This document shows, in pieces, positions 7,567 to 24,149 of a DNA stretch of 64,000 bases. The stretch covers positions 3,901-67,900 of the forward strand of contig CAMUPF010000008.1 in NCBI GenBank assembly GCA_947090755.1, read 5' to 3'. The notes below the pieces were generated by a model. It was not told the origin of the DNA, made no database searches, and saw only the letters and a list, made by a program, of their open reading frames with translations. The stretch's first letter is position 1. Every line of letters starts with the position of its first letter. This DNA comes from an uncultured Candidatus Melainabacteria bacterium. Lineage in GTDB: Bacteria; Cyanobacteriota; Vampirovibrionia; Gastranaerophilales; Gastranaerophilaceae. The translations under genes and the position numbers were made by a program.

Positions 7567-7689
7567 AATAAAAACTTTTTCAAAAATAGGCCATGTGGCT
7601 AATAACAAATCTTAATATTTACTTTTATGCATGATTGTTTGTGATATTCTAATAATCATACAATTAGAGTTTCAGATAAGAGGATTTCA

Positions 7690-8631
7690 GTGTTAAAAGG
7701 GAAGCTGCAGATAATATTAATTACTTTCAACCGTGCAGAATGGTTGAAAAATACTCTTAACTCTGTTTTATCTGAGAATTCACCTGTTAAAGATTTTGAT
7801 ATTACGGTGGTTGATAATAATTCGACTGATAATACCGGTGATATTGTCAAGGGGTTTTGTGCGCGATTCCCTAATTTGAAGTATAAAAAAAATCGCTATA
7901 ATATTGGCGGTAACGCTAATATCGCCAGAGCTTTTGAAATGCCGGAAAAAGAGTATTTCTGGATTCTTTGCGATGATGATTTGTATGACTGGTCAGCTTG
8001 GAGTGAAGTTGAGAAGGCCATTGAGTCAAACCCTGATGTGGTAATAGTTTCACGTGAACAGTTGAAAAAACAAATAAATTTGGGCACGATTACAAAACAG
8101 CTTACGTTTTTACCGTCAGGTATTTATAAGACTGCGAATATTACTGATGATGTGATTCATGATGCACAGTTTAATATACCATTTTTATTCCCGCATTTAT
8201 CAATTGTTTGTGCTCTAATCAACAGTAAAAAAATAGATAACAGAGTGGTTGTTTCCAAAGATATTGTAATCCCTGATAATCTTAATCGTAAATATTTACG
8301 GGGAATAAATTCATCAAACGCTATGGCACGTAATACTCTTTGGATAACAGGTTTTATTAATTCTATCCAGCTTGTTGAAGATTCTAAAACCAGAAAATAT
8401 ATTCTGGATCATCTTCTGGTGCGTCCTCTGGGCTTTTTCTCAATTATAAGTGCAGAATTCAAATATAACCGTCTTTACTGCGGAAATTCTTTTAAAAACA
8501 TTTGTGATGTGTTCTGCGGAATAAGTATAGGGCAGAAATTTCAGTTTTTATTAGCACTTGTCTGGCTGGATGTTATCTATTTTATTAAAAAGTTTATTTT
8601 GCGCAATAAAAAATACATAGGAGAGAAATAA
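7690..8631 (+). CDS. family 2 glycosyltransferase
   Basis: GTG start after AAGAGGA. ITFNRAEWLKNTLNSVL..VVDNNSTDNTGDIV is a GT2 N-terminal signature. Confidence 0.75.
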   Translation: MLKGKLQIILITFNRAEWLKNTLNSVLSENSPVKDFDITVVDNNSTDNTGDIVKGFCARFPNLKYKKNRYNIGGNANIARAFEMPEKEYFWILCDDDLYDWSAWSEVEKAIESNPDVVIVSREQLKKQINLGTITKQLTFLPSGIYKTANITDDVIHDAQFNIPFLFPHLSIVCALINSKKIDNRVVVSKDIVIPDNLNRKYLRGINSSNAMARNTLWITGFINSIQLVEDSKTRKYILDHLLVRPLGFFSIISAEFKYNRLYCGNSFKNICDVFCGISIGQKFQFLLALVWLDVIYFIKKFILRNKKYIGEK

Positions 8632-9428
8632 TGAAAGTCGTAATCCTTGCAGGTGGGCTGGGAACCCGATTAAGTGAAGAAACAAAACTTGTGCCGAAAC
8701 CAATGGTTGAAATCGGCGGAAAGCCTATTTTATGGCACATAATGAAGATTTATTCTCATTACGGGTTTAACGAATTTATTATTTTAACGGGTTATAAATC
8801 TCACGTTATAAAAGATTATTTCGTCCATTACTACCAGCAATATTCTGATATAACTGTTGATATGCTGAATAATTCCGTTGAAATTCATCGTATAAAAACA
8901 GAACCTTGGAAAGTTACAATGCTCTATACCGGCCAAAATACCATGACCGGCGGACGTATAAAAAAAGCGCAGGAATATATCGGAAACGAACCATTCCTTT
9001 TGACTTACGGTGACGGGGTTTCAGATGTTAACATTGATGAATTGATTAGAAATCACAAAGCGTCAGGCAAAATCGCTACGATGACAGCGGTTCAACCGTC
9101 CGGCCGTTTCGGCGCGCTTGTTATCAAAGACGACAATATGATTACATCGTTTATGGAAAAACCAAAAGGCGATGAATCCTGGATTAACGGCGGCTTCTTT
9201 GTTTGTGAGCCTGAAGTATTTGACTATATTCCAAAAGGTGATGATGTAATTTTCGAACGCGCACCGCTGGAAAATCTTGCGAAAGACCACAAGTTAAACG
9301 CCTACAAGCACGATGGTTTCTGGCGTCCGATGGATACGCTTAAGGACAAAAACGATTTGACAGAAATGTGGGAAAGTTCCAACGCCCCTTGGGCTGTATG
9401 GCAAAATCGCGAGGTGGCTAATGTTTAA
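8631..9428 (+). CDS. rfbF: glucose-1-phosphate cytidylyltransferase
   Basis: MKVVILAGGLGTRLSEETKLVPKPMVEIGGKPILWHIMKIYSHYG is the characteristic RfbF/DdhA N-terminus. 265 aa. Confidence 0.9.
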   Translation: MKVVILAGGLGTRLSEETKLVPKPMVEIGGKPILWHIMKIYSHYGFNEFIILTGYKSHVIKDYFVHYYQQYSDITVDMLNNSVEIHRIKTEPWKVTMLYTGQNTMTGGRIKKAQEYIGNEPFLLTYGDGVSDVNIDELIRNHKASGKIATMTAVQPSGRFGALVIKDDNMITSFMEKPKGDESWINGGFFVCEPEVFDYIPKGDDVIFERAPLENLAKDHKLNAYKHDGFWRPMDTLKDKNDLTEMWESSNAPWAVWQNREVANV

Positions 9429-10503
9429 TAACATTTATGCCGGAAAACGTGTATTTTTAACCGGCCATACCGGATTTAAAGGAAGCTGGCTTGCACTCTG
9501 GCTTACAAAACTCGGCGCTGATGTTTGCGGATATTCACTTGCTCCAAACACCGAGCCTTCAATGTTTAAAGAATTGGGTATTGCGGATAAGATTTCTAAA
9601 TCCGTAATCGGAGATATACTTGATGATGCATCCATAGAAAAAGCGATGCAGGATTTTCAACCTGAAATCGTTTTCCACCTTGCTGCGCAGCCGCTCGTAA
9701 GACTTTCATACTCCGAACCTGTTTTGACTTATAAGACCAATGTTATAGGAACATTAAATGTCCTTGAAGCGGCCAGAAAATGTTCTTCTGTAAAAGCATT
9801 TGTAAATATTACGACCGATAAATGCTACGAAAACAAAGAAATTAACCGTGGTTATCGCGAAGATGAACCTATGGGAGGGCATGATATGTATTCATCATCA
9901 AAAGGATGTGTCGAAATTATGTCATCATCTTTCAGACGTTCATTCTTGCAAGAAGGTTATGCAATGGCAACTGCGCGTGCCGGGAATGTTATTGGCGGCG
10001 GAGACTGGGCTTTGGACAGATTAATTCCGGACTGTGTTAAATATATCAACGCAGGTCAAAAAATTGAAATCCGTAACCCTGTTGCCGTTCGTCCGTGGCA
10101 GCATGTTCTGGAACCGTTGTCAGGCTACTTGCTTTTAGGACAAAAACTTCTTGAACATGGTATTCATTTTGCGGATGGTTTCAATTTTGGCCCTAATGAA
10201 GACAGTGTTTTAAAAGTTGCAGAAGTTGCCCAAAAAGTTACTGAATTTTACGGCCGCGGAGAAGTCGTTGTGCATAAGCGCGATGATTTGCACGAAGCAA
10301 ATTTGTTAATGCTTAATATCGAAAAAGCAGAAAAAGTTCTTGGCTGGACGCCAACTTATACCGCTAATCAGGCTATAGAAAAAACTGTTGAATGGTACAG
10401 ACACTTCTATGCGCATGATACGGGTATGTATAACTTTACAATTAATCAAATCGAAAATTATGAGGAAAGCATAAAATGGAACAAGAATTACGCAACAAAG
10501 TAA
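9421..10503 (+). CDS. rfbG: CDP-glucose 4,6-dehydratase
   Basis: GHTGFKGSWLALWL Rossmann motif, YSSSK catalytic motif, 360 aa, overlaps rfbF. Confidence 0.9.
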   Translation: MFNNIYAGKRVFLTGHTGFKGSWLALWLTKLGADVCGYSLAPNTEPSMFKELGIADKISKSVIGDILDDASIEKAMQDFQPEIVFHLAAQPLVRLSYSEPVLTYKTNVIGTLNVLEAARKCSSVKAFVNITTDKCYENKEINRGYREDEPMGGHDMYSSSKGCVEIMSSSFRRSFLQEGYAMATARAGNVIGGGDWALDRLIPDCVKYINAGQKIEIRNPVAVRPWQHVLEPLSGYLLLGQKLLEHGIHFADGFNFGPNEDSVLKVAEVAQKVTEFYGRGEVVVHKRDDLHEANLLMLNIEKAEKVLGWTPTYTANQAIEKTVEWYRHFYAHDTGMYNFTINQIENYEESIKWNKNYATK

Positions 10504-11819
10504 AAGAGGCTGCAAAGGAATATTATTCGGCAGTTTATGGCAAAAAGAGAGAGTTTGACTACATCCCGCCAAGCGGTAAACTTTTAGGCGAAGAAGAGTT
10601 GATGAATATGATTGACGCTTCTTTGGATATGTGGCTTACGGCCGGAAGATTCAATAAAGAGTTTGAAACAAAGTTTGCGAAATATCTTGGTGTAAAATTT
10701 GCGCTTTCAACAAACTCCGGTTCAAGTGCGAATCTTCTTGCTTTTTCCGCACTTACTTCTCACAAACTCGGCGAACGTGCATTGAAGAAAGGCGACGAAG
10801 TTATCTCTGTTGCTGCAGGGTTCCCGACTACAATAAACCCGATTCTTCAACACGGCATGGTTCCGGTTTTCGTTGACTGTGAAGTCGGAACTTACAATAT
10901 CGACGCAGATAAAATTGAAGAGGCTATAACGCCGAAAACAAAAGCGATTTTCCTCGCTCATACGCTTGGAAACAGCTATGATTTAGACAAAATCATGGCG
11001 CTGGCAGAAAAATATAATTTATGGGTTATTGAAGACAGCTGTGACGCTCTGGGCGGTGAATACAAAGGCCGTAAAATCGGTACCATCGGACATATCGGAA
11101 CATTTAGTTTCTATCCTGCACACCACCTGACAATGGGTGAAGGCGGGGCGGTTATTACAAATGACCCTCAATTATACAAAATTATAATGTCATTCCGTGA
11201 TTGGGGCCGTGATTGCTGCTGTCCTCCGGGCCGTGACGGTGTTTGCGGAAAACGTTTCTCACAACAGTTGGGTAACCTTCCTTACGGTTATGACCACAAA
11301 TACACTTATTCTCACATTGGTTTTAACCTTAAAATTACGGATTGGCAAGCGGCTCTTGGCTGTTCACAAATTGATAAACTCGACAGTTTCTTAGAAATTC
11401 GTCGTCGTAACGCAGCACTTTTGACAGAAAAACTGGCGGATTTAAAAGATTACCTGATTCTGCCTGAGGTTAGAGAAGGTGTAAAACCATCTTGGTTCGG
11501 CTATTTGATTTCTGTTAAAGAAAACGCTCCGTTCACAAAACAAGAAATGGTTGAATACATTGAAAAGAAAGGTATCGGAACGCGTCAATTATTTGCGGGC
11601 AATATCCTCAGACAGCCGATGATTGTAGATAATGATGTTAATTTCAGAATTGGAAATTCCGGTTTGATAAATTCAAAAGATTTGACCGAAGAACATTATA
11701 AATTATTACCGAAAACAGATTTTATAATGAATAATACGTTCTGGGTGGGAACATTCCCTGCGCTTGGAGAAGACGAAATTTCAAGAATCTCAGACGCAAT
11801 TCATGCGTGTGTAAAATAA
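10476..11819 (+). CDS. rfbH: CDP-6-deoxy-D-xylo-4-hexulose 3-dehydrase (E1), DegT/RfbH family
   Basis: 447 aa. FRDWGRDCCCPPGRDGVCGKRF..YGYDHKYTYSHIGFNLKITD matches the RfbH-type cysteine-rich region. Sits after rfbF-rfbG. Confidence 0.8.
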   Translation: MEQELRNKVKEAAKEYYSAVYGKKREFDYIPPSGKLLGEEELMNMIDASLDMWLTAGRFNKEFETKFAKYLGVKFALSTNSGSSANLLAFSALTSHKLGERALKKGDEVISVAAGFPTTINPILQHGMVPVFVDCEVGTYNIDADKIEEAITPKTKAIFLAHTLGNSYDLDKIMALAEKYNLWVIEDSCDALGGEYKGRKIGTIGHIGTFSFYPAHHLTMGEGGAVITNDPQLYKIIMSFRDWGRDCCCPPGRDGVCGKRFSQQLGNLPYGYDHKYTYSHIGFNLKITDWQAALGCSQIDKLDSFLEIRRRNAALLTEKLADLKDYLILPEVREGVKPSWFGYLISVKENAPFTKQEMVEYIEKKGIGTRQLFAGNILRQPMIVDNDVNFRIGNSGLINSKDLTEEHYKLLPKTDFIMNNTFWVGTFPALGEDEISRISDAIHACVK

Positions 11820-11839
11820 AAGGCAGGAGCTATAGCCTG

Positions 11840-12979
11840 ATGAGCGTTGCAAAAGGTCAAAATTGCAGTATTAATTTTTTGAGATTTCTTTTTACATTCG
11901 GGATTTGCTTTATGCATCTTGTTTGTCAGGTGATTTCTCCCTATATTGCATATCCGTTGAACTATGGTAATTTTGCGGCACCTTCTTATGCTGTTGAATT
12001 ATTCTTCATAATGGCCGGTTTTTTCTTGTTTTTCAATAAAAAGCCGCTGGAGGAATACATTTCAAACCGTATAATAAGATTGTGGCCGTTGCTGGTGTTT
12101 TCAACTATTATTGCAGGGATTTTGAGAGCTTTGCATATATCAGGTATGTCATTGAAGTTTGATGATATTCTTAACTGCCTGTTTTTACAGGGAACAGGTC
12201 TGATGCAAGGCGGGGCGACTAATGGACCGGCGTGGTTCGTGGGTGTTTTGTTCTGGGTTTCTGTAATATATTATTATTGCAAAAGAGTACTTGGCAAGAA
12301 ATCATTTATTGCATTAATGATTGTTATGGCGGGTATTGGTTTGATAGTATTCGGAACCACAGGCAAGGCAAATCCGTTTGAAGGAGTCAGAGGATTCATT
12401 CTTCCCGCATGGGGGGGGGGGGGGATCTCTATGATGATGTTACGCGGTTTTACGGCTATAGGCATCGGATGTATTCTGGGAAAATTTCAGGAAATTTTTG
12501 CCGGAAGTCATGCTGCGCAGACCCTGCAAAGTGTTTCGGGCTCAAAGAAGCTTTTCACGGCTTTAGAAGTGATATTTTTCGTCGGACTGTGCGCAGTCTT
12601 ACTGGGAGGCAGCCTGATGAATATATATAGTTCTTATTTATTGGCTATGGGCTTATTTTTAATCGTGTTTTTCTTGTTTTTTAATAATTTAGGATATTTT
12701 TCCTCAAAAGTTCTAAACAGAAAAGTGTTTAATCTTCTCGGAGCTTATTCATACGCCATTTATATAATGCAGAATGTAGTATTTTATATTGTAGATTATT
12801 GTTTGAAAACTTACGAAAATCTAATTCCACATACAAATCTGGTTATAACAATTTCGATGATTTTATTTATTGTAATAGGAATTATTTCTTATTATCTGGT
12901 AAATTTCATCGTAGAAAAAACGGTACAGTTATACAATTTTATTCAAAGAGATAATATTTTAAAGGAGACAACTTTATGA
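11840..12979 (+). CDS. membrane acyltransferase family 3 (putative O-acetyltransferase), contains in-frame G14 tract
   Basis: Multi-TM ORF. The N-terminal FLRFLFTFGICFMH motif is typical of acyltransferase_3. ORF open from 11807, ATG 11840 follows AGGAG. The tract encodes WGGGG. Confidence 0.7.
   Translation: MSVAKGQNCSINFLRFLFTFGICFMHLVCQVISPYIAYPLNYGNFAAPSYAVELFFIMAGFFLFFNKKPLEEYISNRIIRLWPLLVFSTIIAGILRALHISGMSLKFDDILNCLFLQGTGLMQGGATNGPAWFVGVLFWVSVIYYYCKRVLGKKSFIALMIVMAGIGLIVFGTTGKANPFEGVRGFILPAWGGGGISMMMLRGFTAIGIGCILGKFQEIFAGSHAAQTLQSVSGSKKLFTALEVIFFVGLCAVLLGGSLMNIYSSYLLAMGLFLIVFFLFFNNLGYFSSKVLNRKVFNLLGAYSYAIYIMQNVVFYIVDYCLKTYENLIPHTNLVITISMILFIVIGIISYYLVNFIVEKTVQLYNFIQRDNILKETTL
12411..12424 (+). 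repeat. homopolymeric G14 tract (in frame, ON)
   Basis: Counted directly: 12411-12420 plus 12421-12424. Confidence 0.95.
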
Positions 12980-13794
12980 ATTCATTAGAAAAGAAAATGG
13001 TAGACACTCTCGTAGATTTGAAAGAAAATCATCACGTAGTCGGCATCAAAGCAGAATTTGAGGCTGAAGGTACAAGACTTGAAGAAGCTTTGAGATTAAA
13101 AGAAGTTGTAACAAAAGCCGGTCTTGAATTAACTATTAAAATCGGCGGATGTGAAGCTATTAAAGATATGTATGATGCAAGAACAATCGGCGTAAGCACA
13201 ATCGTTGCACCTATGATTGAAACACCTTACGCAATGAAAAAATATGTTCAGGCTACAAAATTTGTATTCCCTGAAGAAGAAAGAAAAGATGTTAAATTTT
13301 TAATTAATATCGAAACAATCACAGGTTATGCAAACCTTAAAGAAATGATTGCGTCCCCATATTTTGCTGAAATTGGCGGTATCGTTCTCGGCCGTGTTGA
13401 CATGACAGGTTCAATGGGCTTGACAAGAGAGGATATTAACTCTAAACAAATTTTTGATATTGCAAATACACTTTCTCAAGAAATGTTAAAAGTCAATAAA
13501 GATATGGTAATCGGCGGTGGTGTTTCTGCACAATCACTTCCGTTCTTTAAAGATTTGCCTGCTAACGCTTTATCAAGATTTGAAACAAGAAAAATCATCT
13601 TCGATGCGCAAAAAGCATTAAAAGACCCTAATGCTGACAAAGGTATTTTGAAAGCTGTTGGCTTTGAATTGATGTGGTTGAAAAACAAACGTGAATTCTA
13701 CGGAATGATATTCCAAGAAGACGCCGCACGTTTGACAATGCTTGAAGCAAGATACAAAAAGTTAATCGAAGAAGCAGGTGGCGTGTATGCGTAA
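12976..13794 (+). CDS. HpcH/HpaI aldolase / citrate-lyase-beta-like TIM-barrel protein
   Basis: IVAPMIETPYAMKKYV, FLINIETITGYANL and IVLGRVDMTGSMG resemble the three conserved strands of HpaI-type pyruvate aldolases. Assignment by motif resemblance only. Confidence 0.5.
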   Translation: MNSLEKKMVDTLVDLKENHHVVGIKAEFEAEGTRLEEALRLKEVVTKAGLELTIKIGGCEAIKDMYDARTIGVSTIVAPMIETPYAMKKYVQATKFVFPEEERKDVKFLINIETITGYANLKEMIASPYFAEIGGIVLGRVDMTGSMGLTREDINSKQIFDIANTLSQEMLKVNKDMVIGGGVSAQSLPFFKDLPANALSRFETRKIIFDAQKALKDPNADKGILKAVGFELMWLKNKREFYGMIFQEDAARLTMLEARYKKLIEEAGGVYA

Positions 13795-14446
13795 GGCTTT
13801 AGTGACAGGTGCCTCCCGCGGTATCGGAAAAGCCATAAAGAATTTATTTGAGGAAAGGGGCATAGTGGTTTATGCCCCTGCCCGCTCTGAAATGAATCTT
13901 TCTTCTAACGAAAGTATCAAGGCGTATGTTGAAAAGATTCCTGATGTGGATATTCTGGTTAATTGTGCAGGTATAAATGATTTAGGCTCTATTGAAGAAA
14001 TGACCGAAGAAAAGTTGCAGGAAATGATTCAGGTGAATCTTATTTCACAAACTATGCTTATCAAATATGTTTCTGAAAAGATGAAGGCTAATCGTTACGG
14101 AAGAATCGTTAATTTTGCGTCTATCTGGTGTGATTTTTCAAAAGAGCGCAGAATTATGTATTCAATAGCAAAAGCAGGAGTAAAAGGTCTGACAACAGCG
14201 GCGGCTGTTGAGCTTTCAAAATACAATGTCCTTGTTAACGCAGTAGCTCCGGGGTTTGTAAATACTGAAATGACTTCGCAAAATAACACCCCTGAACAAA
14301 TTGAGGCGCTTGCGCAGGCACTCCCTATTAAACGTATGGCAGAACCTGTCGAAATCGCTGAATTCGTTTATTTCCTTTCAAGTGAACAAAATTCTTTTAT
14401 TACCGGTCAAACAATTTTTGCAGACGGAGGTTTTTCATGTGTTTAG
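13787..14446 (+). CDS. short-chain dehydrogenase/reductase (FabG-like)
   Basis: TGASRGIGKAI cofactor motif, YSIAK catalytic motif. ATG overlaps the upstream stop (ATGCGTAA). Confidence 0.8.
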   Translation: MRKALVTGASRGIGKAIKNLFEERGIVVYAPARSEMNLSSNESIKAYVEKIPDVDILVNCAGINDLGSIEEMTEEKLQEMIQVNLISQTMLIKYVSEKMKANRYGRIVNFASIWCDFSKERRIMYSIAKAGVKGLTTAAAVELSKYNVLVNAVAPGFVNTEMTSQNNTPEQIEALAQALPIKRMAEPVEIAEFVYFLSSEQNSFITGQTIFADGGFSCV

Positions 14447-15516
14447 ATAAATTGACGGTTAAGTCTAATATAAAAAATTACGATGTGTTTTTTGAAAATG
14501 ACGCATCATTTCTGAAATCACTTTCTGAAAAAGAAAATAGCGTTTATGTCGTTGATGAAAATGTGTACGAAGCGCATAAAACAGGTTGTCTTTCAACTTT
14601 ACCGCAGGAAAGATTAATAATCCTTCCAATCGGCGAAGAAATGAAAAATATTGATTCTGTTTGCAGTTTGTATGAAAAAATCATGCGATTTGCACCTCGT
14701 AAAAACCTGAATCTAATTTCCATTGGGGGCGGTATTACTCAGGATGTAACGGGTTTTGTTGCATCGTCTTTGTATCGCGGTGTAAACTGGATTTTTGTTC
14801 CGACGACTTTACTTGCGCAGGTTGACAGTTGTATCGGCGCTAAGACTTCATTAAATTTCAACCATTACAAGAATCTAATAGGAACGTTTTATCCGCCATC
14901 AGAAATCCATATTTATCCTGAATTTTTGAAAACTTTAACAAAAGCGGATTTTTATTCAGGTGTTGGCGAAATGGCTAAATTACATTTGATGAACGGTGAA
15001 TCTGATACAAAAGTTTTTGTGGATTCTCTGGAAGCTATAGATAGACTTGAGCCGCAAACTTTATTGGAACGCACGCAAAACTGTCTTAAAATCAAAAAAT
15101 CATACATTGAGGATGATGAATTTGATACAGGCAAAAGAAATATGTTGAATTACGGTCATTGTTTTGGTCATGCGATTGAAAGTTCAACAGACTTTGCGAT
15201 TTCTCATGGTCAGGCGGTTGTTGTCGGTATGATTCTGGCAAACAAAGAGGCCTTAAGACGTGGAATTTTAAGCGCGGAAAACGAAAAGTATATCCGTGAA
15301 AATGTTTTAGAACCTGTATTAAAGGTGCAAGTTCCGGATGTAGATGCAGCAAAAACCGTTGCCGCAATGGGACAGGATAAGAAAAATCTTGGTAAAGGTT
15401 TAGCCCTTGTCATGATTCAAGATGGCTATGAAATGGTGAAAATCACTGATATGACTACACAAGAAGCTGGAGAAATATTGAAAGAATGTCAAAAATTAAA
15501 TTATCAGACTATATAG
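14437..15516 (+). CDS. 3-dehydroquinate synthase-like sugar-phosphate cyclase superfamily protein
   Basis: GGGITQDVTGFVASSLYRGVNWIFVPTTLLAQVDSCIGAKTSLNF parallels the AroB core, with HCFGHAIE metal-site histidines. Confidence 0.7.
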   Translation: MCLDKLTVKSNIKNYDVFFENDASFLKSLSEKENSVYVVDENVYEAHKTGCLSTLPQERLIILPIGEEMKNIDSVCSLYEKIMRFAPRKNLNLISIGGGITQDVTGFVASSLYRGVNWIFVPTTLLAQVDSCIGAKTSLNFNHYKNLIGTFYPPSEIHIYPEFLKTLTKADFYSGVGEMAKLHLMNGESDTKVFVDSLEAIDRLEPQTLLERTQNCLKIKKSYIEDDEFDTGKRNMLNYGHCFGHAIESSTDFAISHGQAVVVGMILANKEALRRGILSAENEKYIRENVLEPVLKVQVPDVDAAKTVAAMGQDKKNLGKGLALVMIQDGYEMVKITDMTTQEAGEILKECQKLNYQTI

Positions 15517-17261
15517 CAAAAAGATTGAAAGAATGTTATAATGTAGAACACTTTTTTATGGTTTCCGGAGGCGGTGCAATGCACTTAAACGACAGCCTTG
15601 GAAAATACATCCCCTATACCGCAAACCATCACGAACAGGCTTGCGCTATTGCGGCGGAGGGTTATGCAAGGGTTAATCAGAAACTCGGCGTTGTAAATGT
15701 TACAACCGGCCCCGGAGGTTTGAACTGTCTAAACGGTGTTTTTGGCCAGTGGACAGATAGTGTACCTGTTTTGTATATTTCCGGTCAGGTAAAATTTACC
15801 ACAACAATGGCCTCTTGTCCGGAAGTTCCTCTGCGTCAGCTTGGTGATCAGGAGGTTGATATTATTTCCTGCGTCAAACCGCTTGTGAAGTATGCTAAAA
15901 TGGTAACTGAACCTAATGAAATAAAATACCACCTTGACAGAGCGATTTATGAAGCTACAACCGGTCGTATGGGACCTGTTTGGCTGGATATTCCGATGAA
16001 TGTTCAAGGCGCAATGATAGATGAAGATGAATTAAAAGGATTTACTCCGCCATCTGCTAAAGTGTATGATTTGAAAATTGCGCAGGTCGTTGAAAAATTA
16101 AAATCCGCAAAACGTCCGTTAATCGTTGCGGGTTACGGTTTAAGACTGGCTAAACAGGAAGAAAATTTCTTAAAACTTCTTGAAAACACTGATATTCCTG
16201 TGGTTACAACGTTTAACGGAATGGATTTACTCTCGTCAGACCATAAAAACTTCTGCGGTCGAATCGGTACAGTCGGTCAACGTGCGGGTAACTTTACGCT
16301 TCAAAACGCGGACGTGATTTTGTCCCTCGGAACCCGTAACAATATTCGTCAGGCTAGTTACAACTGGGAAAATTTTGCTAAAAATGCTTATAAAATGGTT
16401 GTCGATATTGACAGCGCTGAACTTGATAAACCGACAGTGGTTCCGGACTTGAAAGTTAACGCGGATTTGAAAGAATTTTTGCCTGCTCTTATAAAAGAAT
16501 TCCCGACGCTTGATGTTAAAGAATGGGCAAGTTTTTCTAAAAATTTACAGGCAAAATATACTTTTGAAAAAACAGAGCAATATCAGTCTAAAGACGGTGT
16601 TATCAATGTCTATGATTTTGTTCATACATTGAGTGAAGTTATGAGTGAAGGTGACATTGTTGTTGCCGGAAACGGCTCTGCCTGTGTTTGTACACATCAG
16701 GCGGCACATGTTAAGCCTGAACAGCGAATTTTCTGGAATTCAGGTGATGCATCAATGGGTTATGACCTGCCTGCGGCGCTTGGGGCCTGTTATGAAGCAA
16801 ATGGCAGAAATGTAATCTGTTTGACCGGCGACGGCTCAATAATGATGAATATTCAGGAACTTCAAACCGTTGCGTTTAATAAGTTACCGCTGAAAATTTT
16901 TGTTATTAATAATGCCGGTTATTCCTCAATAAGACAAACTCAAAGGAATTTCTTCAGCGGTCGTATGACGGGTTCAGGCGATGACAGCGGTGTGAGCGTT
17001 CCGGATTTTTGCAAACTCGCAGAAGGCTTTGGTCTTAATTCGGTAAGAGTTTCTAATCCTGTGACAATGAAAGAGGATTTGGCTGCGGTATTGAAAATGG
17101 ACGGCCCTGTGGTTTGTGAAGTAATGGTAGAAAAAGAATATGCGTTCTCTCCTAAATTATCTGCACGAAAACTGGACGACGGAACAATGGTTTCTCCTAG
17201 TTTGGAAGATATGTTCCCGTTCCTTGACAGGGAGGAATATGAAAGGAATTTGTTAAAATGA
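15486..17261 (+). CDS. thiamine-diphosphate-dependent enzyme, acetolactate-synthase-like (YerE-like candidate)
   Basis: 591 aa. The TPP-binding motif GDGSIMMNIQELQT..NN and the N-terminal HEQACAIAAEGYAR are typical of the ALS/YerE family. Confidence 0.8.
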   Translation: MSKIKLSDYIAKRLKECYNVEHFFMVSGGGAMHLNDSLGKYIPYTANHHEQACAIAAEGYARVNQKLGVVNVTTGPGGLNCLNGVFGQWTDSVPVLYISGQVKFTTTMASCPEVPLRQLGDQEVDIISCVKPLVKYAKMVTEPNEIKYHLDRAIYEATTGRMGPVWLDIPMNVQGAMIDEDELKGFTPPSAKVYDLKIAQVVEKLKSAKRPLIVAGYGLRLAKQEENFLKLLENTDIPVVTTFNGMDLLSSDHKNFCGRIGTVGQRAGNFTLQNADVILSLGTRNNIRQASYNWENFAKNAYKMVVDIDSAELDKPTVVPDLKVNADLKEFLPALIKEFPTLDVKEWASFSKNLQAKYTFEKTEQYQSKDGVINVYDFVHTLSEVMSEGDIVVAGNGSACVCTHQAAHVKPEQRIFWNSGDASMGYDLPAALGACYEANGRNVICLTGDGSIMMNIQELQTVAFNKLPLKIFVINNAGYSSIRQTQRNFFSGRMTGSGDDSGVSVPDFCKLAEGFGLNSVRVSNPVTMKEDLAAVLKMDGPVVCEVMVEKEYAFSPKLSARKLDDGTMVSPSLEDMFPFLDREEYERNLLK

Positions 17262-17971
17262 AAAGCATAATTTATGCAATGGTTCCTGCAAGAGTCGGAA
17301 GCACACGTTTAAAATTAAAGAATATTCGTTTGCTTCACGAGAAACCGTTAATCTGGTATGGGGTAAACGCCGCGCAAACCGCCGGATTTTTCGATAAAGT
17401 TTTTATAAATTCCGATGAAGGTCTGTGGGGTAAACTCGCGCAGGACTACGGGTGTGAATTTTATCATCGTAATAGCGAATTCGCTACCTCTATTTCTACT
17501 GCTGATGATGTTATATATGACTTTTTTAAGAATAATCCCGAATGTGATTTCCTTTTCTGGATAAATACAACAAATCCTTTCCAGCCGTATGAGGATTATG
17601 CAAAAGCATTTGAGTACTTTATTGATAATAATTTAGACGGGTTGATTACGACAACAAAGGATAAAATTCATACAAGGTTTATGGGTAAGCCTCTTAACTA
17701 TAATGCAAATGATAAATTACCTAAAACTCAGGATATTGAACCGGTAGAAGTTTTTGCTTTTCCGTTTAGTATCTGGAGAAGAGAAAGTTTTATAAGAAAT
17801 TATGAAAATCACGGTTATGCTTATCTTTGCGGTAATATAGGCTACTGGGAAGTCAATAAACTTGCAGCAGTTGAAATCGATGATGAGGAAGATTTTCTTT
17901 TCGCTAATGCAATTCTTTATGGACGTGATAATCCTTTGTGTTACAAAAAAGAATATGCAAAATTGGATTAA
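17258..17971 (+). CDS. acylneuraminate/ulosonate cytidylyltransferase family protein (CTP_transf_3)
   Basis: AMVPARVGSTRLKLKNIRLLHEKPLIWY matches the NeuA/KdsB-type N-terminal motif. Confidence 0.75.
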   Translation: MKSIIYAMVPARVGSTRLKLKNIRLLHEKPLIWYGVNAAQTAGFFDKVFINSDEGLWGKLAQDYGCEFYHRNSEFATSISTADDVIYDFFKNNPECDFLFWINTTNPFQPYEDYAKAFEYFIDNNLDGLITTTKDKIHTRFMGKPLNYNANDKLPKTQDIEPVEVFAFPFSIWRRESFIRNYENHGYAYLCGNIGYWEVNKLAAVEIDDEEDFLFANAILYGRDNPLCYKKEYAKLD

Positions 17972-17973
17972 TA

Positions 17974-18695
17974 ATGAAAAGATTTCTAAGAAAAATTTTG
18001 GGTAAAAATAAAACGCAATATTATGACATTTGCGGGGATAATAATAAATTAATTATTATTGAAAATGGTGTTGAGCGTCTGGCGAACAAGGAAACTATTC
18101 TCGGTTTGTGGGTTTCGATACACGGAAATAACAATACCGTAAAGTTAGAACTTCCGATTCATTTTGAAAATTCATCTATTATAATTTCGGATTCTGATGA
18201 GGCTGACATTTTTATCCGCAAGACTCAGCATCACGTTAAAAATTTTTCGGTAAATTCACGCCTGCATAGCGGCCATAAACTATTTATTGATGAAGATTTT
18301 TATTGCAACGGGGCAACAATTTTGCTAAGAGAAGAAAACGCGTCGGTAAAAATAGGTAAAGATTGTATGTTTTCGTGGGGAATAACTATATGGACTTCTG
18401 ACGGACATTGTATTTTTGATAATACAACCGGCGAACTGTTAAATGACCCATCCGGGGGGGGGGGGGCCTCATCGGTAATCATGTATGGGTAGGCTGCAAC
18501 GTTAATTTATTGAAAAATTCGAAAATCCCTGACAATTCGGTCGTTGCGTTAGGGGCAATTATTTCTAAAAGATTTGATGAGGAAAATATTTTGCTCGTTG
18601 GCACAAATGAAGTTAAGAAAAGAAATATTCGATGGACAAGAGATTTTATAACTGATTATAAAAGGAGTAAATGTGAAAGTATTAATAGATTCTGA
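17974..18695 (+). CDS. left-handed beta-helix (hexapeptide) acetyltransferase, split by G13 tract (OFF frame)
   Basis: The upstream ORF ends 26 nt after the tract. The other frame reads LIGNHVWVGCNVNLLKNSKIPDNSVVALGAIISK, a classic hexapeptide transferase C-terminus. 14 or 11 G would fuse the two parts. Confidence 0.75.
18454..18466 (+). repeat. homopolymeric G13 tract
   Basis: Counted directly: 18454-18460 plus 18461-18466. Confidence 0.95.
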
Positions 18696-20197
18696 TTATT
18701 TTTTTATAAGGGATATGTATTATCGTTCCTGCGGCCATACACTTAATACTATTAATATTTTGAAACGTTTTTTCGGCGAAGATTTATTAAAGGATTTCAG
18801 GTGTGTTATTTCTGAAACTGTTTATTACCAGTTAAATGAAGAAGAATTATCCGGTATTAATCCTGTAGTGATTTTTGACAGGGAATTGCGGGATATTTTT
18901 GAGGATAAATTTATATCGCACAATGAAATTGTCGAAAAGTTTTATTACGGCAATTTGACCCCTAACAATCTACAGGATTTGAAGGCGCTTTATTCTCGCA
19001 AACTGGAAGGTTTTGTGCCGGATTTAGTTATGCAATTTGAATATCATAATAAATGTTATGACGATATTTTCCCTAAGGCGTTTAAATTAACCTTTCAGGG
19101 CGGACTTTTTAAAAGGGGAATTGGGCCTGAAACTTATATTATTGACCCCTCAGGCAGCTTTAAGGATTCATCTTTAAATATCTTTCGTGATGAAATTAAC
19201 AATTTCGTAATTTCTGAACAACAAAACACACTGATTGATAACTTTAAACGCCGCCTTAGTAATCTTATAAAAGAGAATACATCTTTTATTTCTACCTTAT
19301 TAGCGCCTTATAAAGAGAAGTTTGATTATCTTGTTTTGCTTCCGTTACAAATGAGTAATCATTATGGTTTTGATACTGAAACAGGATTTAAAACGCAGTA
19401 TGACTATCTTGAATATGTACTGGATAATGTTCCTAAAAATGTCGGGGTAATCGTAACAGAACACGACCATGGCCGTTTTCTTGAAGAAGGAACCTTCGGA
19501 AAAGGCGGATTCTTAGAATGGTTTGAAAACAAGTATGAAAATTTGGTATACATTAAAGAACTGCGGGGGGGGGGGGGGGTATTCCTCTCCGTCAATATAT
19601 TTCTTGCCGGAGGTTGATGCTGTGATAAATGTTTCGTCCTCAGTCGCCCTGACTGCAACTTTATTCGATAAAAGAATAATATCACTTGGTAAAACTTATA
19701 ATAATTGTTTTAAGGATACTCAGGGATTAGAAAACATTATTGAAGTTTTAAGCAAACCGGTTAGAAATAAAAATTCGTTTTTATTCTGGTTTTTGACTAA
19801 ATATGTTTTTTTCGAAAAACAGTTGAATGATAAATCTTTTATGTACCAATATTTATGTGATTCCATAGAAAAATTCAAGAATGAAGGAGTAACTTTTGCT
19901 TACTTTACGCAAATGAATGGAATCGAAGAGGCTTGTGATTCTATTGCAGGGTATATTGAAAATGTTTTCATTACAGAGCGCCGCAGGCAGGAAGATGAAA
20001 GGCTTGCGCAAGAGGCAGAAAGGCTTGCAAGGGAAAAGGAAATAGAAGAAGCAAGACTACGCGAAGAGGAGCGAAAACGGCGGATTGATAAAAAACGTGA
20101 AAGATGTAACCGGTTCGGAATCTATTACGAGGCAAAACATATTATTATCGGCCTGTTCGGGCTTAAAATAAAATTTAGAAACTATTTGGAGGAATAA
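18673..20197 (+). CDS. capsule-synthesis (KpsC/KpsS-like, PF05159-like) protein with C-terminal charged coiled coil, split by G15 tract (OFF frame)
   Basis: YLVLLPLQMSNHYGFD and VIVTEHDHG before the tract. YSSPSIYFLPEVDAVINVSSSVALTATLFDKRIISLGK after it, in the -1 frame. 14 or 17 G would fuse them. Family call by motif resemblance. Confidence 0.55.
19565..19579 (+). repeat. homopolymeric G15 tract
   Basis: Counted directly: 19565-19570 plus 19571-19579. Confidence 0.95.
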
Positions 20198-20200
20198 TTT

Positions 20201-21265
20201 ATGAATACAATTTTAAAAGAAGATTTTGATTATATTCTTGGCGATAAGAATATTGATTGGTCAGAATTAGCAGGTACGACAATTCTGGTTTCCGGAGCAT
20301 CAGGATTCTTGCCCTCATATTTGATAAAAACGCTTTTATACCTGAATTCTCTCGGTGTCCAAAAACCCGTCAAAATCCTTGCACTTGTAAGAAATATTGA
20401 CAAAGCAAAAGCTAAATTTAAAGATTCACTCAATGACAGTAATTTAGTGTTCCTTGCACAGGATGTTACAAAACCGATAGAAGTTCCTGAAAAAATTGAT
20501 TATATTATTCACGCAGCAAGTCAGGCCAGCCCTAAATTCTTTTTCTCCGATCCTGTAGGAACTATCAATGCCAATACTCTGGGTACAAGTAATTTACTGG
20601 CTCTTGCAAAAGAAAAAGAGGTTAAAAGTTTCCTATATTTTTCATCCGGCGAAGTATGCGGTGACATTTTTGAACATAAAAATCTTGTATCAGAAGATGA
20701 TTACGGGATTGTTAACCCGTTAGATGTTAGAAATTGCTATTCAGAGAGTAAAAGAATGGGCGAAAATATGTGTTTTTGCTGGAATTACCAGTATGGTGTT
20801 CCGGTAAAAATCGTAAGACCGTCGCATACTTATGGCCCCGGATTTAGTTTTGACGATGGCAGAGCGTTTACAAGTTTTGTGGCCTCTGTGGTTAAGGGCG
20901 AAGATATTGTGTTAAAAAGTGACGGCAGTGCAAAAAGGTCTTTTGTCTATCTGGCAGATGCAGTAAGAGCGTATATTTTTGTACTTTTAAACGGTCAGAA
21001 CGGTGCCGCTTACAATGTTGGCTACGATGGTGAAATAAGTATTCTGGAACTGGCAAACCTTCTTGTTTCTCTGGCTGATAACAAAAATATTAAAGTTCGT
21101 CGTGAAATTTCAGGTAATGCCCCGAGCAGTAAAGTCGCAAACGGACTCCTCGATATCAGTAAATTAAAAGCTATGGGCTGGTATCCGAATATTTCAGAAG
21201 AAAAAGGGTTTAAAAGAACTATTGACTACTTTCTTCAGGAATTAGAATTGGAGACCGTGCACTAA
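20201..21265 (+). CDS. NAD-dependent sugar epimerase/dehydratase (extended SDR)
   Basis: VSGASGFLPSYL cofactor motif and YSESK catalytic motif. 354 aa. Confidence 0.8.
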   Translation: MNTILKEDFDYILGDKNIDWSELAGTTILVSGASGFLPSYLIKTLLYLNSLGVQKPVKILALVRNIDKAKAKFKDSLNDSNLVFLAQDVTKPIEVPEKIDYIIHAASQASPKFFFSDPVGTINANTLGTSNLLALAKEKEVKSFLYFSSGEVCGDIFEHKNLVSEDDYGIVNPLDVRNCYSESKRMGENMCFCWNYQYGVPVKIVRPSHTYGPGFSFDDGRAFTSFVASVVKGEDIVLKSDGSAKRSFVYLADAVRAYIFVLLNGQNGAAYNVGYDGEISILELANLLVSLADNKNIKVRREISGNAPSSKVANGLLDISKLKAMGWYPNISEEKGFKRTIDYFLQELELETVH

Positions 21266-21270
21266 AACTA

Positions 21271-21297
21271 AAAAAGAGGCTCGATGAGCCTCTTTTT
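21271..21297. terminator. bidirectional intrinsic terminator
   Basis: aaaaagaggctc-gat-gagcctcttttt between convergent genes. Confidence 0.8.
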
Positions 21298-22481
21298 TAT
21301 AATGAATATTTTGTCTTCTTTGCAGATCTGAACTTTTTACGTAAATCGCTTAATGTTATATTATGCAAAAGTCTGCGGATGAAAAGATATGCCATATCCC
21401 GTATTCTGAGATTTTTGACGGCTGTTGAATAAATTTTATTTTTATAGTTTTTGAATATGTTTTTTGTTTTCTTATAATGATTTTGTTTCATAAGTTTAAG
21501 GATATCTTCTCTGTATTCTTTGATTCCGTAACCAAAAACTTCTTCAAGATGTTTTCTTGATTCGTCATCATTCAATAAATCATCAATATATTCTGCAGAA
21601 TGACCTACAAAACGTTGTTCCATAAACAAACCGTGTGCGATAAAGAACGGTATATCTTTTTTGTCGTTTAATTTATCAACAAAAGGGCTTTCCGGAAAAA
21701 TTTCTTTTGCGATATTGATATCTTCAAGAGTCAAAAATGTTTTATAATAAGTTTTATGCTCGTACCAGTCGTATGCCGCAACTTTATCAATAGCGCCGAT
21801 TGCGGACGCTTGTGATTCGTGAATCCTGTAATTAGCGACTAATTTATTTATGTAACCTGCCTTGTAACCTTTACAGAAAAGTGCCAGCCATAAATTGATA
21901 TCAAAGCAATAAATATAAGTTTTATTGATTTTTACAGTTTTAAGTATATCAGCTTTAATTATAGCACCTGCCCAAGGTAGAAAACCGATTCCGCGTCCTA
22001 ACAGGCCTATACAATCAGCGGGAGTATTTTCTACGGAGAAAAATTCTCTTACATCAAAGTGATTTACATTTAAATCTTTTCCCTCTGAATTAATATATTC
22101 AACGTTACCAAAGGCGAAGTCAACATCCGGAGTGCTTTCCATATAGTTAACGAGGGTTTCAAGTCCGCCCTCTCTCAGTTCGTCATCTGCAGATACGACT
22201 TTGATATATTTCCCGCAAGATTGATCGAACATTTTTTGTAATAATAAACCGCTGCCGCCGCCGATATTTTCTTCCATATCAATATGTTTGATACGCGGAT
22301 CGTTATAAGAGCGTGCTATTTCTCTACAGGAATCTTCTGTTGCATGGTTAAGTAAAAATAACTCAAAGTTTTGATATGACTGTTTTAGAACTGATTCAAT
22401 TGAACATTTCAAAAACTTTTCATCGTTATAGTATGGTATCAAAATTGAAACTAAAGGGTTTCCCGTCGGTGTGTTTTGCAT
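21297..22481 (-). CDS. family 2 glycosyltransferase (paralog A)
   Basis: VSILIPYYNDEKFLKCSIESVLKQSYQNFELFLLNHATEDSCREI. 394 aa. Collinear similarity to the 22989..24149 product, including the C-terminal K..YSL. Confidence 0.8.
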   Translation of the reverse strand: MQNTPTGNPLVSILIPYYNDEKFLKCSIESVLKQSYQNFELFLLNHATEDSCREIARSYNDPRIKHIDMEENIGGGSGLLLQKMFDQSCGKYIKVVSADDELREGGLETLVNYMESTPDVDFAFGNVEYINSEGKDLNVNHFDVREFFSVENTPADCIGLLGRGIGFLPWAGAIIKADILKTVKINKTYIYCFDINLWLALFCKGYKAGYINKLVANYRIHESQASAIGAIDKVAAYDWYEHKTYYKTFLTLEDINIAKEIFPESPFVDKLNDKKDIPFFIAHGLFMEQRFVGHSAEYIDDLLNDDESRKHLEEVFGYGIKEYREDILKLMKQNHYKKTKNIFKNYKNKIYSTAVKNLRIRDMAYLFIRRLLHNITLSDLRKKFRSAKKTKYSL

Positions 22482-22611: not shown

Positions 22612-22953
22612 ATGGATAAGGCAGAAGTAAAAAAGAATGTGGGGCAAAAGGTTCGTACATATAGGTTGAATTTAAAGTTATCCCAGTTCGCACTTGGTGA
22701 AAAAGCGGATATTAATCAAAGACAAATCGCCCAAATAGAATCCGGAAAATCTTTGCCTTCTCTTAACACTTTGCTTAAATTCTGTGAAATTTTTCACTGT
22801 GAAATCGGTGAATTTTTTGAACAAAATATCGTCAAAACCAGAGAAGAACTTAAGCAGGAGATTATTAACATTATTGATGACTTTAACTTTGGCCAATTAG
22901 AGTTTATATATTTGTATATCCGCAATTTTTCTATGGTTAGGTCAAAAAAATAA
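22612..22953 (+). CDS. XRE-family helix-turn-helix transcriptional regulator
   Basis: VGQKVRTYRLNLKLSQFALGEKADINQRQIAQIESGKSLPSLNTLLKFCEIF is a Cro/C1-type HTH. Confidence 0.8.
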   Translation: MDKAEVKKNVGQKVRTYRLNLKLSQFALGEKADINQRQIAQIESGKSLPSLNTLLKFCEIFHCEIGEFFEQNIVKTREELKQEIINIIDDFNFGQLEFIYLYIRNFSMVRSKK

Positions 22954-22988
22954 ATAGGCCTAGGCATTTAATAGAAAGGAATTTGATT

Positions 22989-24149
22989 ATGAATAGTCCG
23001 TTAGTATCACTATTTATACCGTATTATAATGATAAAACTTTTTTAAGGGTTTCTATAGAGTCTGTATTGTCACAAACTTATAAAAACTGGGAGTTGATTT
23101 TGGTAAACCATGCATCAACTGATTCAAGTCGTGAGATAGCTCATTCATATAATGACAGTAGAATTAAACATGTTGACGTTAGCTGTAATTTAGGGGTTGG
23201 CGGTGGCGGGCTGCTAATGACAAAATTTCTGGAACAGGCTAAGGGCAAATATGTTAAATTTTTATGCGCTGATGATATGTTGCTTGATGATGGATTATCA
23301 ATTCTCGTTGATTATATGGAAAGTCATCCTGATATAGATTTTGCATTTGGCAATTTGAATTATATTAATGAAAACGGCAGGTCTCTGGGGAAAGATTTTT
23401 TCTCGAATAGAGAATATTTTTCTGTTGATAATACTGAAGCTGACTGTATACGTCTTTATTCTAAAGGATATAGTTTTTTACCGTATATTGGCAGTATTGC
23501 GAAACGCCAAATTTTCAATAATATAACAATAAACAAAACGATTATTATGACATTTGATATGTCTTTATGGCTTTCGCTGCTGTGTAAGGGATATAAAATC
23601 GGTTATATTGAACAACTTATCGGAAATTATAGAATTCATAAAGAACAGGCCTCTGCAATACAAAAAAGAAGACAGGCTGAAATGTTAAGTTCGCATGAAT
23701 GGGGAATATTTTGGAAGATTTTTCTTACTATTGAAAGCGTAGATTTGGCAAAAGAGGTATGGCCCGAGAGCGATTTAGCAGAGAAACTTACCCGTAAAGA
23801 AGATATCCCTTTTTTTGTAGCATATATGCTATTTGATTTCTGGATAATTTCGCAGGAAATATATGCTTATATCGCCTCCTTACTTGATGACGATTGCAAG
23901 CGTCAATACTTAATCGAAACATTCGGTTTTGGTGTCAGAGAGTTGAGGAAAGCCTGTCTGAATAAGTTACAAACTAATAATTCAGCGAAAATGAATTCCT
24001 TGAAAAAATATAAAACTAAACTTTATATGAAAGGCGTTAAGGATTTAAATTTACTGGATATGATTTATCTTGCGTTTAGAAAATTTATCAACTTAATTAC
24101 TTTGCGCCCTTTATTTAAACTGTTCAAAAAGAAAAACTATTCGTTATAG
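22989..24149 (+). CDS. family 2 glycosyltransferase (paralog B)
   Basis: VSLFIPYYNDKTFLRVSIESVLSQTYKNWELILVNHASTDSSREI. ATG 22989 after AAAGGA; the tracked ORF starts at TTG 22983. Confidence 0.8.
   Translation: MNSPLVSLFIPYYNDKTFLRVSIESVLSQTYKNWELILVNHASTDSSREIAHSYNDSRIKHVDVSCNLGVGGGGLLMTKFLEQAKGKYVKFLCADDMLLDDGLSILVDYMESHPDIDFAFGNLNYINENGRSLGKDFFSNREYFSVDNTEADCIRLYSKGYSFLPYIGSIAKRQIFNNITINKTIIMTFDMSLWLSLLCKGYKIGYIEQLIGNYRIHKEQASAIQKRRQAEMLSSHEWGIFWKIFLTIESVDLAKEVWPESDLAEKLTRKEDIPFFVAYMLFDFWIISQEIYAYIASLLDDDCKRQYLIETFGFGVRELRKACLNKLQTNNSAKMNSLKKYKTKLYMKGVKDLNLLDMIYLAFRKFINLITLRPLFKLFKKKNYSL

Follow-up and report, generated by a model that had tools for sequence, protein, structure and literature searches.

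The segment 12976-20197 of the DNA analysed here, a 64,000-nucleotide stretch of contig CAMUPF010000008.1 from an uncultured Candidatus Melainabacteria bacterium (in the following termed the window), is the middle of a longer operon, 7690-21265, in a surface-glycan locus of Gastranaerophilales (Melainabacteria). This operon probably directs the synthesis of a CDP-activated 3,6-dideoxyhexose with a long, acyl-derived branch at C-4, that is, a sugar of the yersiniose, erwiniose and caryophyllose class. The branch donor would be tailored by a 3-dehydroquinate synthase (DHQS)-like enzyme together with a short-chain dehydrogenase/reductase (SDR), and a separate module would handle a CMP-linked sugar. 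An earlier note on this DNA had suggested a different route in which an aldolase makes a 3-deoxy-2-ulosonic acid that is activated with CMP and passed on by a KpsS-like transferase. That route lost ground in our survey of related loci, which ties the aldolase to a thiamine diphosphate (ThDP)-dependent enzyme and to rfbF, rfbG and rfbH. It is likely, in our view, that aldolase and ThDP enzyme cooperate with the CDP-sugar genes located upstream of them.

The operon consists of 14 genes, read from a run of same-strand open reading frames (ORFs) between 7690 and 21265 whose stops and starts overlap or abut (Table 1). All the enzyme families named in the earlier note, namely an HpcH/HpaI-like protein, an SDR, a DHQS-like protein, a ThDP enzyme and a NeuA/KdsB-family protein, were recovered with Pfam or NCBIfam matches at the places given for them. 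However, the span chosen there cuts the operon after rfbF, rfbG, rfbH and a membrane acyltransferase gene, and an acetyltransferase-like gene within the span went unmentioned. Each of the three rfb products exceeds its NCBIfam equivalog cutoff. The window encodes the aldolase, a YerE-like enzyme, the CDP-keto-sugar enzymes and SDRs in a single operon, and the gene neighbourhood seen across related loci matches the scheme for acyl-branched sugars and not the CMP-ulosonate route.

Judged by its sequence, the ThDP enzyme is a YerE-like carboligase predicted to accept a ketone. Its best relative in the PDB is JanthE (8RPH; E=4e-110 over the full length), and the next match, 5AHK, is presumably YerE of Pseudomonas protegens. 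YerE adds a pyruvate-derived C2 unit to CDP-4-keto-3,6-dideoxyglucose. A phosphonate reading, which would combine a phosphoenolpyruvate mutase with a decarboxylase, was dropped because the ThDP enzyme is a 591-amino-acid protein of the YerE/acetohydroxyacid synthase type and the barrel protein matches HpcH. JanthE has been described as a YerE-like carboligase that accepts ketones, and enzymes of this kind take cyclic ketones in vitro (PMC12247030). The same paper also cites an in silico survey of more than 200 YerE-like gene clusters.

In a general scheme for branched sugars, exemplified by erwiniose, caryophyllose and gastriose, a 4-hydroxy-2-oxo acid made by an aldolase is decarboxylated and added to CDP-4-keto-3,6-dideoxyglucose by a YerE-like enzyme, and a reductase completes the branch (PMC9306805). 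The caryophyllose aldolase gene, MMAR_2331, is assigned there to the 'aldolase/citrate lyase family', and the scheme for this sugar requires a C4 deoxy-aldehyde whose origin is left unexplained; PMC12395582 gives no annotation for MMAR_2329-2331. The window shares with the pathways for yersiniose (YerE/YerF), erwiniose (ErwE/F/I/J) and caryophyllose (MMAR_2331 and the ThDP enzyme MMAR_2332) the genes leading from CDP-glucose to a CDP-4-keto-3,6-dideoxyhexose. Also common to them are a YerE-like carboligase, an aldolase of the aldolase/citrate lyase family, SDR-type reductases and the surface-glycan setting. By contrast, the DHQS-like enzyme and the FabG-like SDR encoded between aldolase and ThDP enzyme are not mentioned in the literature on those pathways that we examined. 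The window further differs in its host, an uncultured gut Melainabacterium, and in an operon devoid of an E3 reductase gene. Literature searches yielded no paper connecting caryophyllose or the lipooligosaccharide of M. marinum with dehydroquinate, and none naming TIGR04425 or 'AroB-related'.

The gene neighbourhood of the aldolase was surveyed in 80 loci from species-level genomes (aldolase 62-94% identical), which were annotated by tblastn and hidden Markov model searches; they come from metagenome-assembled genomes of Melainabacteria, Elusimicrobia, Bacteroidota, Firmicutes, Spirochaetes and Rickettsiales. In the 47 of these loci whose flanks extend for 8 kb or more to either side of the aldolase gene, a YerE-like ThDP gene adjoins it in 44, rfbF, rfbG and rfbH are found near it in 35, and a gene for an RmlD-like SDR of 280 amino acids in 34. 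The conserved unit thus comprises rfbFGH, the genes for a reductase, the aldolase and the ThDP enzyme and, optionally, a tailoring gene or gene pair, and it represents the pathway for acyl-branched sugars. The cytidylyltransferase falls outside this unit: only 5 of the 80 loci have a NeuA-like gene less than 10 kb from the aldolase gene, with no enrichment among those that have a DHQS-like gene (one or two of 27).

The slot between the aldolase and ThDP genes is variable. It is occupied by the SDR and DHQS-like genes in 27 of the 80 loci, by a gene for a haloacid dehalogenase (HAD)-type phosphatase of subclass IA in 19 or IIA in nine, and by nothing in 25. SDR and DHQS-like genes occur as a pair in every locus unless a contig end intervenes. 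Since two unrelated types of HAD phosphatase and a DHQS homologue alternate at the same position, the intermediate handled there is probably phosphorylated; DHQS chemistry begins with the elimination of phosphate. A locus with rfbFGH and a HAD phosphatase but no DHQS/SDR pair (L015) encodes an aldolase and a ThDP enzyme that are 94% and 92% identical, respectively, to those of the window. The five nearest relatives of the window's ThDP enzyme all derive from HAD-variant loci, and the variant types are interleaved among nearest neighbours. Given this near-identity to proteins of an rfbFGH plus HAD locus, aldolase and ThDP enzyme can be assigned to the CDP-linked pathway for acyl-branched sugars (PMC9306805), and the keto-acid donors of the variants must hence be close analogues.

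We propose the following pathway. To judge from their families, RfbF, RfbG and RfbH would provide the acceptor, CDP-4-keto-3,6-dideoxyhexose. The HpcH-like aldolase may join pyruvate to an aldehyde phosphate (probably erythrose-4-phosphate) in an aldol condensation, forming a 3-deoxy-heptulosonate 7-phosphate resembling 3-deoxy-D-arabino-heptulosonate 7-phosphate (DAHP). The DHQS-like enzyme would then remove the phosphate by NAD-dependent oxidation, β-elimination and reduction, leaving a 6-keto-7-deoxy acid, and the FabG-like SDR would reduce the 6-ketone to yield 3,7-dideoxy-heptulosonate. For this to happen, the enol intermediate formed by the DHQS homologue would have to be ketonised rather than cyclised. 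From family and context we infer that the YerE-like enzyme removes the carboxyl group of the keto acid and couples the remainder to the CDP sugar at its C4 ketone, after which an SDR, here the one of 354 amino acids, may reduce the ketone of the branch. In HAD-variant loci, the 7-phosphate would be hydrolysed to a 7-hydroxy acid, and the chain would end in a hydroxylated instead of a deoxy carbon. The proposed 3,7-dideoxyheptulosonate donor would, after decarboxylative coupling and reduction, produce a 1,3,4,5-tetrahydroxyhexyl branch, which equals the side chain of caryophyllose, and the two erythro centres of that branch would fit an origin from D-erythrose. The caryophyllose branch has indeed been described as 1,3,4,5-tetrahydroxyhexyl, i.e., as 2'- and 6'-deoxy (PMC5706390).

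The DHQS-like protein scores 393.5 bits with TIGR04425 ('AroB-related putative sugar phosphate phospholyase (cyclizing)'), just below the cutoff of 400, and with 267 bits it stays below the equivalog cutoff of 305 of the aroB model TIGR01357. It is about 35-40% identical to bacterial AroB and shares the active-site set of AroB and of sugar-phosphate cyclases such as DOIS and EEVS. Residues R114, D130, K136, N146, E178, K181, K220, R234, N238, H241, H245, H257 and K316 are retained in 31 family members from several phyla and in AroB; at constant offsets they presumably correspond to R130, D146, K152, N162, E194, K197, K250, R264, N268, H271, H275, H287 and K356 of Aspergillus DHQS. This conserved set covers the glycine motif for NAD binding, the zinc ligands (Glu, His, His) and the residues binding phosphate and carboxylate, including a Lys/Arg pair. 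As all catalytic and DAHP-binding residues are kept, the substrate should resemble DAHP (a 3-deoxy-2-ulosonate 7-phosphate), and condensation of pyruvate with erythrose-4-phosphate would give a compound of exactly this type. The family differs from AroB by changes beside the active site (DSS to DSC, GHT to GHC, HGE to HGQ and YQP to YPP), and these substitutions are candidates for a shift from a cyclising to a ketonising outcome. Moreover, in all sampled contexts the DHQS-like gene resides in glycan operons adjoining the aldolase and ThDP genes and not among genes for aromatic amino acid synthesis; a housekeeping AroB paralogue was rejected for this reason.

Deoxygenation of the side chain by the DHQS/SDR pair is a tentative assignment, to which we give somewhat less than an even chance. 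Several observations weigh against the pathway as drawn. The DHQS-like step is its weakest link: to our knowledge every member of the DHQS superfamily characterised so far cyclises its substrate, and a non-cyclising phospholyase would be new chemistry for which there is no precedent. The loci with an empty slot do without any tailoring gene. Loci L097-L099, to which the window is most closely related (aldolase 98% identical), contain a HAD phosphatase gene in addition to the DHQS/SDR pair, so that the two are not strict alternatives. In several lineages the stop codon of the ThDP gene overlaps the start codon of the CMP transferase gene immediately behind it, which leaves room for a functional link between these genes. 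Aldolase paralogues of about 80% identity stand alone outside glycan loci (L008-L010, L029 and L085), with no ThDP or rfb gene within 10 kb. Finally, none of the operon genes between 7690 and 21265 matches the family of E3 (AscD/RfbI-type) reductases, which may be encoded elsewhere, and the window lacks the 280-amino-acid RmlD-like reductase that many other loci encode. The 354-amino-acid SDR is our candidate for the branch reductase in its place. It is 62-65% identical to the product of the gene right after the ThDP gene in L001-L004 and L011 and of that right after the gene labelled UNK in L095 and L096; identity to the product of the gene following UNK in L097-L099 reaches 92%.

The AlphaFold model of the aldolase (pLDDT 94.7) is a TIM barrel of the pyruvate kinase type, and the nearest solved folds are those of HpaI class II aldolases and pyruvate kinase. 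A single-sequence search of the PDB gave no match, and a profile search weak ones to HpaI and YfaU. In the profile alignment the invariant residues E113 and D142 coincide with the 'QVES' and 'GPADL' motifs of HpaI, which we take to hold the metal ligands E149 and D175. The counterpart of Arg70 of HpaI, the arginine expected to bind pyruvate, appears to be Lys55, in a region that lacks a reliable alignment. Protein searches returned more than 7000 matches, the top 120 of which are 78-93% identical, and more than 490 relatives are present in species-level genomes of Melainabacteria, Elusimicrobia, Bacteroidota, Firmicutes and others; among genomes, Candidatus Gastranaerophilus phascolarctosicola matches best (aldolase 94% identical). 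A plasmid search yielded only three distant matches. The homologue of Novosphingobium humi (47.5% identical) is encoded directly after rfbF-rfbG, and that of Ilyobacter (36.5%) in a catabolic cluster for organic acids; the plasmid homologues support a generic pyruvate-aldolase chemistry and nothing more. The lone paralogues of L008-L010 adjoin genes for guanylate kinase and an ADP-forming acetyl-CoA synthetase. If the product is DAHP-like, such a lone copy might have a housekeeping role, for instance as an alternative entry into the shikimate pathway. In L067 (9454-11650), three tandem aldolase paralogues with 72%, 69% and 49% identity to the window protein lie directly upstream of the ThDP gene.

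Downstream of the ThDP gene, the cytidylyltransferase and a putative glycosyltransferase probably constitute a portable 'activate and transfer' pair for a CMP-linked, presumably ulosonic, sugar. The cytidylyltransferase matches CTP_transf_3 (71.9 bits) and, below the cutoff, the PseF model (68.6 bits); NeuA structures in the PDB are hit at about 2e-14, and the N-terminal motif PAR..S.R....KN can be read from its sequence. A Pfam scan of 43 window ORFs revealed no gene for a NeuB- or KdsA-type synthase, in agreement with the earlier note. The same note had called the transferase KpsC/KpsS-like. After correction of a frameshift the product comprises 507 amino acids, for which nine relatives are detectable. 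Neither its halves nor the corrected protein match Pfam (including Capsule_synth), NCBIfam or any PDB sequence, even in profile searches with E values of up to 10. Of the retaining β-3-deoxy-D-manno-octulosonic acid (Kdo) transferases WbbB (GT99) and KpsC/KpsS (GT107), it is WbbB that comes nearest in predicted fold: for an intact homologue (P0241; pLDDT 73) WbbB is the best hit, with TM scores of 0.53-0.58 compared with about 0.2-0.35 for other GT-B folds.

The arrangement of these genes varies among loci. The transferase gene directly follows the CTP_transf_3 gene in L012-L014/L032, where it is fused to a glycosyltransferase family 2 (GT2) domain, and in L100 and L102. In the window and in L095-L099 it lies one gene further on, with the acetyltransferase-like gene in between, whose intact homologues in L095-L099 comprise 233-240 amino acids. 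In L101, no CTP_transf_3 gene was called upstream of the transferase gene. That the transferase gene adjoins a CTP_transf_3 gene in most related loci fits the use of a CMP-sugar donor. Even where the pair has diverged to 27-40% identity, Gastranaerophilales repeatedly have it immediately behind the ThDP gene. Cytidylyltransferase, acetyltransferase and WbbB-like transferase would together add an O-acetylated, CMP-activated sugar of the ulosonic type.

Could the aldolase nevertheless supply this CMP module? In that case the aldolase, either alone or assisted by the DHQS-like enzyme and the SDR, would make a seven-carbon 3-deoxy-2-ulosonic acid, which the NeuA-like enzyme activates and the WbbB-like transferase adds to the glycan, while the ThDP enzyme may introduce a branch at the 6-ketone left by phosphate elimination. 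The order aldolase-SDR-DHQS-ThDP-CMP transferase-transferase recurs in the window, in L095/L096 and in an island shared by L012-L014/L032 that has no rfbFGH within 10 kb; it is also found in L097-L099 with the HAD phosphatase gene inserted before the ThDP gene. This recurrence, the lack of a NeuB/KdsA gene and the predicted relationship of the transferase to an enzyme using CMP-Kdo all speak for the idea, and in its pyranose form 3,7-dideoxyheptulosonate would resemble a truncated Kdo. Yet we regard it as improbable in view of the rarity of NeuA-like genes near the aldolase and of the near-identity of the window's ThDP enzyme to one from an rfbFGH plus HAD locus. Furthermore, identity among the CMP transferases does not exceed 25-29% between locus types, the pair occurs beside the HAD-variant loci L015 and L026 as well, and short contigs carry it without a visible aldolase gene (L100 and L102) or carry the transferase alone (L101).

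A true cyclase activity of the DHQS-like enzyme is the alternative suggested by its relatives. A DAHP-like product, or a phosphorylated branch already attached to the sugar, would be converted to a carbocycle of the dehydroquinate type that the SDR reduces, and the glycan would contain a quinate-like unit. The uniform behaviour of the superfamily, the conservation of all catalytic residues and the NCBI family name 'phospholyase (cyclizing)' favour this possibility, and so does the acceptance of cyclic ketones by YerE-like enzymes in vitro (PMC12247030). However, a free product of the dehydroquinate type is no longer an α-keto acid and could not serve as ThDP donor; the conserved carboxylate-binding residues speak against a substrate attached to the sugar; and no activating enzyme or transferase for such a product consistently accompanies the DHQS variant. 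As, in addition, the ThDP enzymes of DHQS- and HAD-variant loci are near-identical and interleaved, which points to similar acyclic donors, cyclisation appears unlikely. A still bolder form of it, which we hold to be slightly more doubtful, places a cyclising DHQS homologue in surface-glycan synthesis with the carbocyclic quinate-like unit as C-4 branch or as a CMP-activated 'carba-ulosonic' acid used by the WbbB-like transferase; the tertiary alcohol beside the carboxylate would then mimic the anomeric centre of Kdo or sialic acid. In a milder version, likewise conceivable, a single product of aldolase, DHQS-like enzyme and SDR feeds both ThDP branching and the CMP transferase. Very unlikely, in our opinion, is an action of the DHQS-like enzyme and the SDR ahead of the aldolase, by which a sugar phosphate would become a deoxy-aldehyde such as 4-deoxytetrose before condensation with pyruvate. 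It would account for the C4 deoxy-aldehyde of the published caryophyllose scheme (PMC9306805), and the HAD phosphatases could likewise act on an aldehyde phosphate, but the Lys/Arg carboxylate pair and the complete DAHP-type site of the DHQS-like enzyme fit the phosphate of a 2-keto-3-deoxy acid and not a tetrose phosphate. We retain the CDP-linked, acyl-branched sugar with DHQS/SDR tailoring as the favoured product of the operon. The block is better read as belonging to a pathway of a known kind, leading to a CDP-linked C-4 acyl-branched 3,6-dideoxyhexose, to which the DHQS-like/SDR pair and a separate, probably phase-variable CMP-sugar module have been added.

The window contains five long G/C tracts (Table 1), and runs of nine or more G residues give 25 matches as compared with 0.05 expected by chance. 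Three of the tracts are located inside glycan genes, i.e., those for the acyltransferase (G14), the acetyltransferase (G13) and the transferase (G15). The acyltransferase gene is in frame (ON), while the acetyltransferase gene would need one additional G and the transferase gene one G less (both OFF). Near-identical loci L097-L099 have G13 or G14, G14 and G13, respectively, at these positions, so that different combinations of on and off states result: G13 splits the acyltransferase gene in L097, and G14 leaves it whole in L098 and L099. The transferase gene of L095 is intact and has no tract; a truncated form of the transferase was found on 34 contigs. In L097-L099 a further G13 tract covers the final codons of the DHQS-like gene, some 70 nt ahead of the start of the HAD gene, and could act as a switch between two side-chain chemistries. 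Campylobacter jejuni is known for phase variation of surface-glycan genes by homopolymeric tracts, and the 13-15-base poly-G tracts within three glycan-modification genes, whose length differences switch the reading frame, follow the same pattern. The tract-length differences thus suggest phase variation of glycan-modification genes, with homopolymer errors in the assemblies as the alternative. We know of no description of this type of phase variation in Melainabacteria. Outside the operon, the C12 tract precedes a pilin-like gene (1807-2763, minus strand) by about 130 nt, and the G11 tract precedes an ORF of unknown family (29459-30415) by about 20 nt. L015, too, contains tracts of G10 to G14.

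Table 1. Genes of the operon and its surroundings, homopolymeric tracts, and the slot genes of locus L097 (window coordinates unless stated otherwise).
Feature	Coordinates	Strand	Basis or remark
GT2 glycosyltransferase, first gene of the operon	7690..8631	+	Pfam Glycos_transf_2, 74.5 bits
RfbF, glucose-1-phosphate cytidylyltransferase	8631..9428	+	TIGR02623, 402.5 bits (cutoff 300)
RfbG, CDP-glucose 4,6-dehydratase	9421..10503	+	TIGR02622, 487 bits (cutoff 278)
RfbH/E1, CDP-6-deoxy-4-hexulose 3-dehydrase	10476..11819	+	NF011936 RfbH, 667 bits (cutoff 423)
Membrane acyltransferase (Acyl_transf_3)	11807..12979	+	Pfam, 85 bits; in-frame G14 tract
Divergent HpcH/HpaI-type (class II, metal-dependent) pyruvate aldolase	12976..13794	+	Pfam HpcH_HpaI, 39.5 bits (cutoff 25)
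FabG-like SDR (short-chain ketoreductase)	13778..14446	+	Pfam and NCBIfam
DHQS-like enzyme (N- and C-terminal DHQ_synthase domains)	14437..15516	+	TIGR04425, 393.5 bits; aroB, 267 bits
YerE/JanthE-like ThDP carboligase, three domains, 591 amino acids	15486..17261	+	Pfam; best PDB match 8RPH
NeuA/PseF-like cytidylyltransferase (CTP_transf_3)	17258..17971	+	Pfam, 71.9 bits
Hexapeptide-repeat acetyltransferase-like gene	17974..18695	+	Frameshifted at G13 tract
Putative CMP-sugar glycosyltransferase, WbbB-like predicted fold	18673..20197	+	Frameshifted at G15 tract
Extended SDR, 354 amino acids, candidate branch-ketone reductase	20201..21265	+	Pfam Epimerase, 145.9 bits
GT2 glycosyltransferase	21297-22481	minus	
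Small helix-turn-helix gene	22612-22953		
GT2 glycosyltransferase	22983-24149	plus	
Small tyrosine recombinase at locus edge	24144-24686	minus	
C12 tract	2890-2901		
G14 tract	12411-12424		Acyltransferase gene
G13 tract	18454-18466		Acetyltransferase-like gene
G15 tract	19565-19579		Transferase gene
G11 tract	29427-29437		
DHQS-like gene of L097	5030-6121 (L097)		
HAD phosphatase gene of L097	6187-6843 (L097)		

Downstream of the operon, the glycan locus is completed by two further GT2 genes, a helix-turn-helix gene and a small tyrosine recombinase gene. A tyrosine recombinase of 178-180 amino acids recurs at the edges of glycan loci, as seen in the window, in L001 (1606-2148 and 3350-3886), in L003 and in L097 (15330-15872). 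A search for inverted repeats returned one weak pair (6995-7015 and 7600-7620; 21 nt, 76% complementary) that flanks a region upstream of the operon and might mark an invertible promoter or be due to chance. A more elaborate, uncharacterised variant of the locus is L011 (12829-21062 of a 1.87-Mb Melainabacteria contig), in which aldolase, SDR, DHQS-like and ThDP genes are followed by a methyltransferase gene, PseB/PseC-like genes, a CTP_transf_3 gene, an AP_endonuc_2 TIM-barrel gene, an ATP-grasp gene and an RraA-like (aldolase-type) gene, with no rfbFGH within 10 kb. Elsewhere in the window, the spans 35530-36507 and 47208-57251 include a prephenate dehydratase gene, in line with the presence of aromatic amino acid synthesis, and genes of the flagellar export apparatus and switch (FliN-type, FliP, FliR family and FlhA), which fits motile Gastranaerophilales.

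The DHQS-like/SDR tailoring pair is an undescribed but widespread addition to a known kind of pathway. The published schemes for branched sugars that we examined, such as that for caryophyllose, leave the source of the deoxygenated chain end unstated, and a DHQS-like eliminase acting with a ketoreductase on a DAHP-like aldol would, if true, be a simple answer. It would also endow the family of sugar-phosphate cyclases with a new biological role or reaction outcome. Because the cassette is widespread, with its more than 490 relatives, the proposal extends to many uncharacterised glycans, including those of Gastranaerophilales in the human gut. Taken together, the swapping of HAD phosphatase and DHQS/SDR genes and the poly-G switches suggest that this little-known group diversifies its antigens.

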